Below are positions 800 through 1,268 of a DNA stretch of 1,268 bases, one piece after another (position 1 is the stretch's first letter; each line of letters starts with the position of its first letter). Location of the stretch: assembly GCA_000004985.1 (NCBI GenBank), contig GG739466.1; one strand, written 5' to 3'. A program made the position numbers and the translations under genes. The stretch comes from Naegleria gruberi. Its lineage: Eukaryota. Below the pieces are notes generated by a model. The model was not told where the DNA came from and did not search any database. It saw only the letters and a program-made list of their open reading frames with translations.

Positions 800-828
800 T
801 TAACGATATGAATCAGGTTCACAGCTAC

Positions 829-948
829 CTTGGGACGAACACTCCCAATACAGTTTCCTCTTCCAGAGCAAACAGTTGAGTTCTTATTAGTTTCTCCAAA
901 ACATTGATATTCACAAGTTCCATTAATTAGAATGCCATTTTCTGAGCA
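829..948 (-). CDS. EGF-like / cysteine-rich extracellular module segment (degenerate; 4-5 Cys)
   Basis: NGILINGTCEYQCFGETNKNSTVCSGRGNCIGSVRPK has the spacing C-x3-C-x10-C-SGRGN-C. There is an N-x-T sequon (NST). The segment continues after a frame change as G-S-C-EPDSYR*. The region is open only after a TGA at 949-951 (- strand) in this frame. Confidence 0.4.
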
Positions 949-1171
949 TCAAGGGATAAGTTTCTAATTCTCTTATTCCACTTCCAGCAATTGTGGAAAT
1001 ATAGCCATTTGTGCTTATTTTGCGAGTTCTGTGATTATTATTGTCGGCAGCAATTAGTATTGCACCATTTTCTTGAATTACAATTCCATTAGGATAATTT
1101 AATTGTGCACTTGTGGCCAAAATACCTCCATTATATCCTCCTGCTGCAGTCGACTTCTTTGATTGTAATAA
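923..1171 (-). CDS. NHL-repeat segment, stop-to-stop open frame (contains the 65-aa ORF-track entry 923..1120, whose 'M' is a TTG)
   Basis: The frame is open from just after TGA (1172-1174, - strand) to TAA (923-925). It encodes one complete about 47-aa NHL repeat (GGYNGG ILATSAQLNYPNGIVIQENGAILIAADNNNHRTRKISTNGYISTIAGSG). The frame stays open upstream of the TTG, so the annotated start is an artefact of start-codon choice. Confidence 0.6.
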   Translation of the reverse strand, partial: LLQSKKSTAAGGYNGGILATSAQLNYPNGIVIQENGAILIAADNNNHRTRKISTNGYISTIAGSGIRELETYPLMLRKWHSN

Positions 1172-1250
1172 TCAACAATATAAATTTCACCAATTGAACT
1201 AATTGACACACTAAATGGATAGTTTGCCTGAGCATTTGTGGCCAATCCAC
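1101..1250. repeat. intragenic direct repeat (NHL repeat unit at DNA level) with 125-nt period
   Basis: Bases 1103-1125 (TTGTGCACTTGTGGCCAAAATACC) and 1228-1250 (CTGAGCATTTGTGGCCAATCCACC) share about 80% identity, including an identical 10-mer at 1111-1120 and 1236-1245. The offset is 125 nt, and 125 mod 3 = 2. Confidence 0.6.
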
Positions 1251-1268
1251 CATGTGATATTGTAGAGA
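1156..1268 (-). CDS. upstream NHL-repeat segment in a different frame (-1 relative to 923..1171), running off the right edge
   Basis: The translation ...GGLATNAQANYPFSVSISSIGEIYIVDYYNQR is a second NHL repeat. It matches the downstream copy (ILATSAQLNYPNGIV...IAADNNNHR) at both protein and DNA level. For example, TTGTGGCCAA occurs at 1111-1120 and at 1236-1245. Confidence 0.5.

Follow-up and report, generated by a model that had tools for sequence, protein, structure and literature searches.

Organization of the Window

The window, i.e., the whole 1268-nt stretch of DNA that was analyzed, carries two open reading frames (ORFs) on the plus strand. On the minus strand, a three-frame translation of positions 800-1268 yields NHL-like and cysteine-rich peptide sequence that is scattered over the frames, whereby the longest ORF in this region has no more than 65 codons. 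The first plus-strand ORF (3-299) is open to the left window edge, comprises 99 codons and is followed by a double stop (TAA TAA, 300-305). Its GC content by codon position (0.47/0.32/0.20) is coding-like. No Pfam match was obtained for it and no homologue was found in a word-indexed protein search, and its best PDB match, the N-lobe of the MAP3K MLT/ZAK kinases, was not significant (E 0.31). This ORF may either belong to an orphan Naegleria gene, of which it would be the 3' end, or be a kinase fragment that has degenerated. The second plus-strand ORF (557-799) has 80 codons from its ATG and ends with a TGA at 797-799. It gave no Pfam match and no significant PDB match. A base-composition estimate yields a chance of about 10-15% for an ORF of such length in the window, so that ORF 557-799 is possibly no gene at all. 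Its stop codon directly abuts a TAA of the minus strand (800-802), in which the broken minus-strand sequence ends, and thus the two converge without any spacer. A search of the window against Rfam found nothing.

NHL- and EGF-Like Sequence Is Divided Between Minus-Strand Frames

In the following, the minus-strand frames are designated m0, m1, and m2, with their first codons at the plus-strand coordinates 1268, 1267, and 1266, respectively. In a composite stitched together from the frames, Pfam recognized TEN_NHL (PF25021) with 33.5 bits (cut-off 27.1) and NHL (PF01436) with 23.7 bits (cut-off 20). An HMM of the NHL unit, which has 60 positions and was built from 57 units of the word-indexed protein search matches, detected frame m1 with E 5.9e-17 (model positions 8-60) and frame m2 with E 3.1e-10 (model positions 14-47); the remaining four frames were without significant match. 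With such E values, the NHL similarity is real, far beyond chance and divided between frames. The Pfam EGF models stayed below their cut-offs on the composite (EGF_integrin, E 0.13; EGF_2, E 4.7), whereas an EGF-unit HMM built from Naegleria proteins matched TCEYQCFGETNKNSTVCSGRGNC with E 4e-6 (positions 23-46); the seven-residue core CSSQGSC alone was matched by this HMM with E 0.1. The preliminary description of the locus, which had been made from the letters alone, had read NHL and EGF-like peptide by hopping between frames. This reading is confirmed by the homology searches, in which the NHL part passes the Pfam cut-offs and the EGF part becomes significant only with the Naegleria-built HMM, and no single frame holds all of it.

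Complete, evenly spaced NHL units that could form propeller blades are not present in this sequence. A repeat search of the window placed LATxAQ and LATSAQ 125 nt, i.e., 41.7 codons, apart, whereas intact NHL units follow each other at 55-57 aa in 16 of 16 intervals of the Naegleria proteins; in 130 intervals taken from the other matches, the distance ranges from 53 to 69 aa. The NHL-unit HMM positions 48-56 are missing after the first unit. Thus, the segment whose absence after DYYNQ had been noticed beforehand is indeed lacking. Similarly, no EGF-like domain was recovered as defined by the profiles PF07974 (EGF_2) or PF25024 (EGF_TEN) together with the six-Cys pattern C-x-C-x2-G-[YFW]-x-G-x2-C; the C-x-C...G-Y-x-G...C half is missing in both EGF units.

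Five Collinear Pieces Match the Naegleria gruberi Protein XP_002673894

An exhaustive HMMER search, for which the straight translation of 948-769 (minus strand) was used as query, found XP_002673894, a protein that had been missed by the word-indexed protein search. Overall, 36 of the 60 query residues are identical, and the protein contains the same CSENGILINGTCEYQCFGETNKNSTVCSGRGNCIG as the window peptide, with 36 consecutive residues being identical. XP_002673894.1 is the N. gruberi 'predicted protein' NAEGRDRAFT_70916 (UniRef100_D2VPM5), which has a length of 2807 aa and the Pfam domains NHL, TEN_NHL, EGF_2, EGF_TEN, and a C-terminal Pkinase. By eye, it is composed of about 18 NHL units of 56-57 aa, followed by about 13 EGF units of about 39 aa, a hydrophobic stretch, and the kinase. 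The other named HMMER matches that were looked up are N. gruberi paralogues, and the EGF linker of the window proved to be specific to Naegleria in this exhaustive search. The word-indexed protein search returned generic NHL proteins of less than 400 aa (the named ones bacterial), which share about 40% identity and leave the Cys-rich part uncovered.

By tblastn and pairwise alignment to XP_002673894, five pieces were defined, all of them collinear and on the same strand, with identities of 85-100%. Piece A (1150-1266, frame m2, codons at 1266-3i; STISHGGLATNAQANYPFSVSISSIGEIYIVDYYNQRSR) is the remnant of an NHL unit and is clipped by the window end. Its aligned part (1251-1150, GGLATNAQANYPFSVSISSIGEIYIVDYYNQRSR) shares 29 of 34 residues with positions 210-243 of XP_002673894, whereas the identity to the collinear unit (approximately residues 862-894) is only about 50%; the first unit of the fragment thus resembles unit 4 of the protein and not the collinear one. 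Piece B (1150-974, m1; TAAGGYNGGILATSAQLNYPNGIVIQENGAILIAADNNNHRTRKISTNGYISTIAGSGI, i.e., TAAGGYNG...STIAGSGI) is an NHL unit that corresponds to residues 908-966 (51/60). Besides substitutions, it shows two in-frame changes of one residue each, namely a deletion and an insertion. Piece C (977-963, m0) is the end of the last NHL unit and consists of NKRIR, which is identical to residues 1001-1005 (5/5); on its own it is not significant (NHL-unit HMM, E 2.1), and it is contiguous with piece D. The latter (960-844, m2) reads LIP, a stop codon and CSENGILINGTCEYQCFGETNKNSTVCSGRGNCIG, and comprises the linker and the first half of EGF unit 1 (residues 1007-1045, 38/39). The stop codon, an in-frame TGA at 951-949, replaces the conserved Trp1010 and is the sole difference in this piece. 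Piece E (841-821, m1) is the core of EGF unit 2, CSSQGSC (residues 1077-1083, 7/7), which tblastn joins with the matches to residues 908-966 and 1006-1046 at a combined E of 1e-48. Beyond this core, the tail EPDSYR cannot be aligned and leads to the TAA at 802-800, so that the end part in frame m1 spans 800-841.

At the window edge (1255-1266, minus strand), STIS is directly followed by HGGLATNAQ; intact units have about nine residues more at this place (G-T-G-x-G-Y-S-G-D). There may be a further in-frame deletion here, for which four residues only can be adduced.

Altogether, the fragment resembles XP_002673894 in the type of its NHL unit (GDGGLATSAQLNYP...IYIAD.NHRIRKI.T.GYISTIAG), in the linker between the NHL and EGF parts (KLIPWCSENGILINGTCEYQCFGETNKNSTVCSGRGNCIG, 38/39 identical), in the subsequent EGF core CSSQGSC, and in the order of the pieces. 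It differs from the protein by the absence of about 9, 35 and 31 residues at three junctions, by a 1-nt deletion and by the TGA at Trp1010. Moreover, its NHL part does not exceed two units and a stub, compared to about 18 units in XP_002673894, its EGF part is confined to portions of two units, compared to about 13, and it lacks the C-terminal hydrophobic (membrane-spanning-looking) stretch as well as the kinase.

Four Deletions and One Stop Codon Interrupt the Fragment

In comparison to XP_002673894, the fragment changes frame four times. The deletions have lengths of approximately 28, 106, 1, and 91 nt, each of which is 3n+1, and this results in the observed succession of frames m2, m1, m0, m2, and m1. 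These lengths, as well as the microhomologies described below, were deduced from the alignment of protein to DNA. At junction 1, between pieces A and B (1153-1150, tcga; m2 to m1), the loss amounts to about 28 nt and corresponds to KVTTYGFIS (nine codons and one base). Here, the last codon of RSR (cga, 1152-1150) overlaps the first codons of STAAG (tcg act, 1153-1148). Junction 2, between pieces B and C (979-975, ggaat; m1 to m0), lacks about 106 nt and thereby most of the last NHL unit, i.e., about 35 residues (966/967-1000 of XP_002673894), with base 977 belonging both to the G965 codon (gga, 979-977) and to the N1001 codon (aat, 977-975). Junction 3, between pieces C and D (963-961; m0 to m2), lies in an A run from which one base is lost. 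Between NKRIR in m0 and LIP-stop-CSENG in m2 there are 2 nt, where XP_002673894 has one codon (K1006), and the Lys1006 codon is left incomplete. The underlying change would be agaaaactt to agaaactt, with the parental nucleotides deduced from the protein. At junction 4, between pieces D and E (843-842, ag; m2 to m1), about 91 nt are missing (residues 1046-1076), so that EGF unit 1 loses its second half and unit 2 its beginning; only 2 nt are located between G1045 (ggg, 846-844) and C1077 (tgt, 841-839). The overlap with either side of the junctions amounts to 2-5 nt, at most about 5, and at three of the junctions about 75 residues of XP_002673894 are missing.

This differs from the preliminary description, which had assumed three frame breaks, each caused by a single-base slip in a homopolymer and each curable by a single-base repair, so that one continuous protein would result. 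The alignment to XP_002673894 yields four breaks and, in addition, the in-frame TGA at 951-949. The tblastn analysis, which had been proposed for locating the frameshifts, did reveal frameshifts, but at 1153-1150, 979-975, 963-961, and 843-842 and not at the assumed sites. Those sites are TTT at 1158-1160 in NQR, AAAA at 938-941 in SENG, and 828-834 in SQG, and at all three the alignment to XP_002673894 is gapless and no indel is needed; the peptide at the three homopolymers is either identical to that of XP_002673894 or differs by substitution only. As for the mechanism, just one of the four breaks involves a single base, and this one is situated in an A run (961-963) that had not been listed. 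Even the 'repaired' product would still be without about 75 residues that are found in every intact unit: one NHL unit would miss an invariant part and another the greater part of its length, and two EGF units would each lack one half. For highly repetitive genes, it is therefore advisable to compare a frame-hopping reading with a full-length relative before attributing it to single-base errors.

The 11-nt sequence GTCGACTGCAG (1143-1153, minus strand), which lies on junction 1, contains a SalI site that overlaps a PstI site and looks polylinker-like. It is also expected from the codons TCG ACT GCA G.., which encode the Ser-Thr-Ala-Gly of the STIAG motif, and no vector-like sequence was found in its surroundings.

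Homology Ends Near Position 820

From 820 to 800 and below, tblastn with XP_002673894 gave no match at E <= 10. When XP_002673894 and its paralogues were used against the whole window, no match to the post-EGF region or the kinase was obtained at E <= 0.01, and at E <= 10 the post-EGF and kinase residues produced chance-level matches only. Thus, the remaining approximately 1700 codons of XP_002673894, including at least 11 further EGF units and the kinase, are absent from the window. Below 800, two stretches are suggestive by eye only, namely P-D-S-Y-R-stop-S-K-H-stop-N-stop-N-C, which can be placed against PNNCTCFKGHYGETC, and SISSSRICSKSG at 726-691. In this region, tblastn with XP_002673894 gave nothing at E <= 10, and the HMM yielded an E value of 0.36.

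Just past the end of the homologous region, the plus strand harbors two perfect tandem repeats, namely 2.1 copies of GATTACTAT at 752-770 and 2.5 copies of AGTTTT at 778-792. They may mark slippage-prone sequence at the homology boundary. Furthermore, there is a 37-nt direct repeat on the plus strand (390-426 and 920-956; 76% identity), whose first copy (390-426) translates on the minus strand into EIGVLINGS, similar to ENGILINGT of the fragment. The idea that 390-426 constitutes a second, older relic was given up, as 29 of 300 dinucleotide shuffles score as well.

Related Proteins in Naegleria and Other Organisms

The NHL-EGF junction of the fragment has the same architecture in several shorter Naegleria paralogues, namely XP_002674235 (737 aa), XP_002670765 (854 aa), and a copy on the ENA contig k127_311506 (ERZ929261). 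The shared order is an NHL array, the motif C.E..L...G.CEYQCFG, and an EGF array. Over the EGF query, these paralogues are 36-46% identical to the window, and they are uninterrupted ORFs. The copy on k127_311506 (221-2437) is an intact, intronless NHL-EGF gene of 738 codons that is near-identical to XP_002674235. Naegleria DNA is thus present in public metagenome assemblies, where it is called by prokaryote-style gene finders. The GC content of this contig is 34% and that of the window is 33%.

Beyond Naegleria, the teneurin-type models TEN_NHL (PF25021) and EGF_TEN (PF25024) are the best-scoring Pfam models for both the window composite and XP_002673894. However, the domain order of teneurins is reversed, since NHL precedes EGF in the fragment, and the other teneurin domains are missing. 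The likeness to teneurins is one at the domain level only and does not reflect an orthologous relationship. Bacterial NHL-repeat beta-propeller proteins (annotated as YvrE/YncE-like) have the same unit of 56-57 aa and the same motif at about 40% identity, but they are without an EGF part and their identity is far below that of the Naegleria proteins. An origin from a phage, plasmid, or bacterium was considered and discarded, as BLASTN against phages and plasmids gave no match. Scans of viral, prokaryotic-genome, and metagenome contigs with exact DNA and protein patterns likewise gave no match for the window. In the literature collection that was searched, no paper combines 'Naegleria gruberi', 'NHL', and 'EGF'.

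The Minus-Strand Sequence as a Probable Pseudogene Fragment and Alternative Explanations

The minus-strand sequence combines homology to a protein-coding family with frameshifts, a premature stop, and truncation, and its disabling lesions in relation to XP_002673894 are four deletions and one stop codon. A single open frame that would lead from NHL through EGF and the hydrophobic stretch to the kinase does not exist, since four frame changes and the TGA intervene. Frame changes, TGA, truncation, and homology together are what an ordinary pseudogene fragment would present, and not a working gene. On the basis of these sequence comparisons, the minus strand of 800-1268 is most likely a pseudogene fragment that belongs to the Naegleria NHL-EGF family, is truncated and frame-shifted, and has internal deletions; presumably, no functional protein is made from it. 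The window itself probably originates from N. gruberi or from an organism very close to it. The preference for gene-specific decay with internal deletion over uniform sequencing error, which had been voiced beforehand, agrees with the full length of the relative, the about 75 missing residues, and the nonsense codon.

The source gene of the relic, a putative surface-receptor gene, most likely belonged to a family in which arrays of NHL repeats and of EGF repeats would be combined with a C-terminal hydrophobic stretch and a protein kinase, as is suggested by the close collinear identity of the five pieces to XP_002673894 (29/34, 51/60, 43/45, and 7/7). XP_002673894 itself is probably a close paralogue of this source rather than its direct parent, because piece A is closer to unit 4 of the protein than to the collinear unit. 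The probable course of events is that a copy of a family member was formed by duplication or fragmentation and lost its function, and that deletions, one homopolymer slip, and point substitutions then built up. The losses at junctions 1 and 2 might have arisen by deletion between short direct repeats (tcga and aat, respectively), either by slippage or by microhomology-mediated joining. Beyond annotation, the relic is of little importance. It would add one dead fragment to a family of NHL-EGF surface proteins that is large and expanded and in which some members have a kinase. Relics of this type, should they be numerous, would document the turnover of the NHL-EGF family; a single fragment is unsurprising.

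The retained pieces keep a strong coding-like GC3 of 0.15-0.18 in addition to their high identity to XP_002673894. Many indels thus stand against few substitutions, a combination that slow decay explains no better than would an artefact or an origin that is recent or occurred in one step. It is unlikely, however, that the breaks are artefacts of the cloning, sequencing, or assembly of an intact gene, i.e., that they go back to deletions in E. coli clones, to polymerase or template jumping, or to a homopolymer miscall. Such an explanation would be in line with the coding-like GC3 and with the break that consists of a single base in an A run, but it would need four separate deletions plus a change from TGG to TGA within 330 nt (1153-821). 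The window is a whole stand-alone contig of 1268 nt, and contigs as short as this can be of low quality. However, the homology also stops abruptly near 820, with about 1700 codons missing, and the deletions, the new stop codon, and this loss of homology would all fall into about 450 nt. Although the near-identical tandem units of the NHL-EGF family (56-57 aa and 39 aa) are prone to slippage in vitro, piece B carries substitutions and in-frame indels in relation to XP_002673894, and these differences point to a diverged copy and not to a damaged read of the XP_002673894 gene. Furthermore, an overlap of only 2-5 nt at the junctions is too short for joins in a k-mer assembly (de Bruijn graph).

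Quite improbable is also a one-step mosaic. In this case, template switching in the course of replication or reverse transcription would have joined collinear pieces from a family member in one event, or a mobile element would have captured them as a gene fragment, and the product would have landed beside unrelated sequence. The loss of one base in an A run and the TGA are ordinary decay events. On the other hand, a one-step mosaic would explain that pieces with identities as high as 85-100% are interrupted by four junctions and that the homology ends abruptly, and it would be compatible with the collinearity of all pieces on one strand and with the overlapping reading at junctions 1 and 2, which suggests microhomology. 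Neither terminal repeats, nor a target-site duplication, nor a transposase- or RT-like ORF was found in the window. If the one-step mosaic were true, template switching at microhomologies of 2-5 nt would have joined four or five collinear pieces of an NHL-EGF-kinase gene, which then came to lie beside unrelated orphan ORFs, and the relic would illustrate how gene fragments are shuffled in one step in a heterolobosean genome, in contrast to slow decay.

That the sequence is a functional gene, in which short spliceosomal introns or recoding (programmed frameshifting or an alternative code) would bridge the frame changes, is hardly credible: a 40-nt GT...AG stretch (981-942, length class 3n+1) could join STIAG to NGILINGTC, and two frames finish in AAT-TAA, but junctions 1 and 4 are without spare sequence, which is missing there and not inserted. 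The GT...AG stretch was rejected as an intron since it holds the homologue of coding NKRIRKLIPWCS of XP_002673894. Excision of the 11-nt GTCGACTGCAG was dismissed as well, as it is far too short for an intron and the NHL unit would still miss a strand. Use of the ciliate code (TAA/TAG = Gln) leaves every frame interrupted by TGA codons. Frameshifting at stop codons, as in Euplotes, does not fit either, since the homologous frame switches well upstream of the stops. The intact paralogue on k127_311506 passes through the NHL-EGF junction in one ORF of 738 codons that contains no intron.
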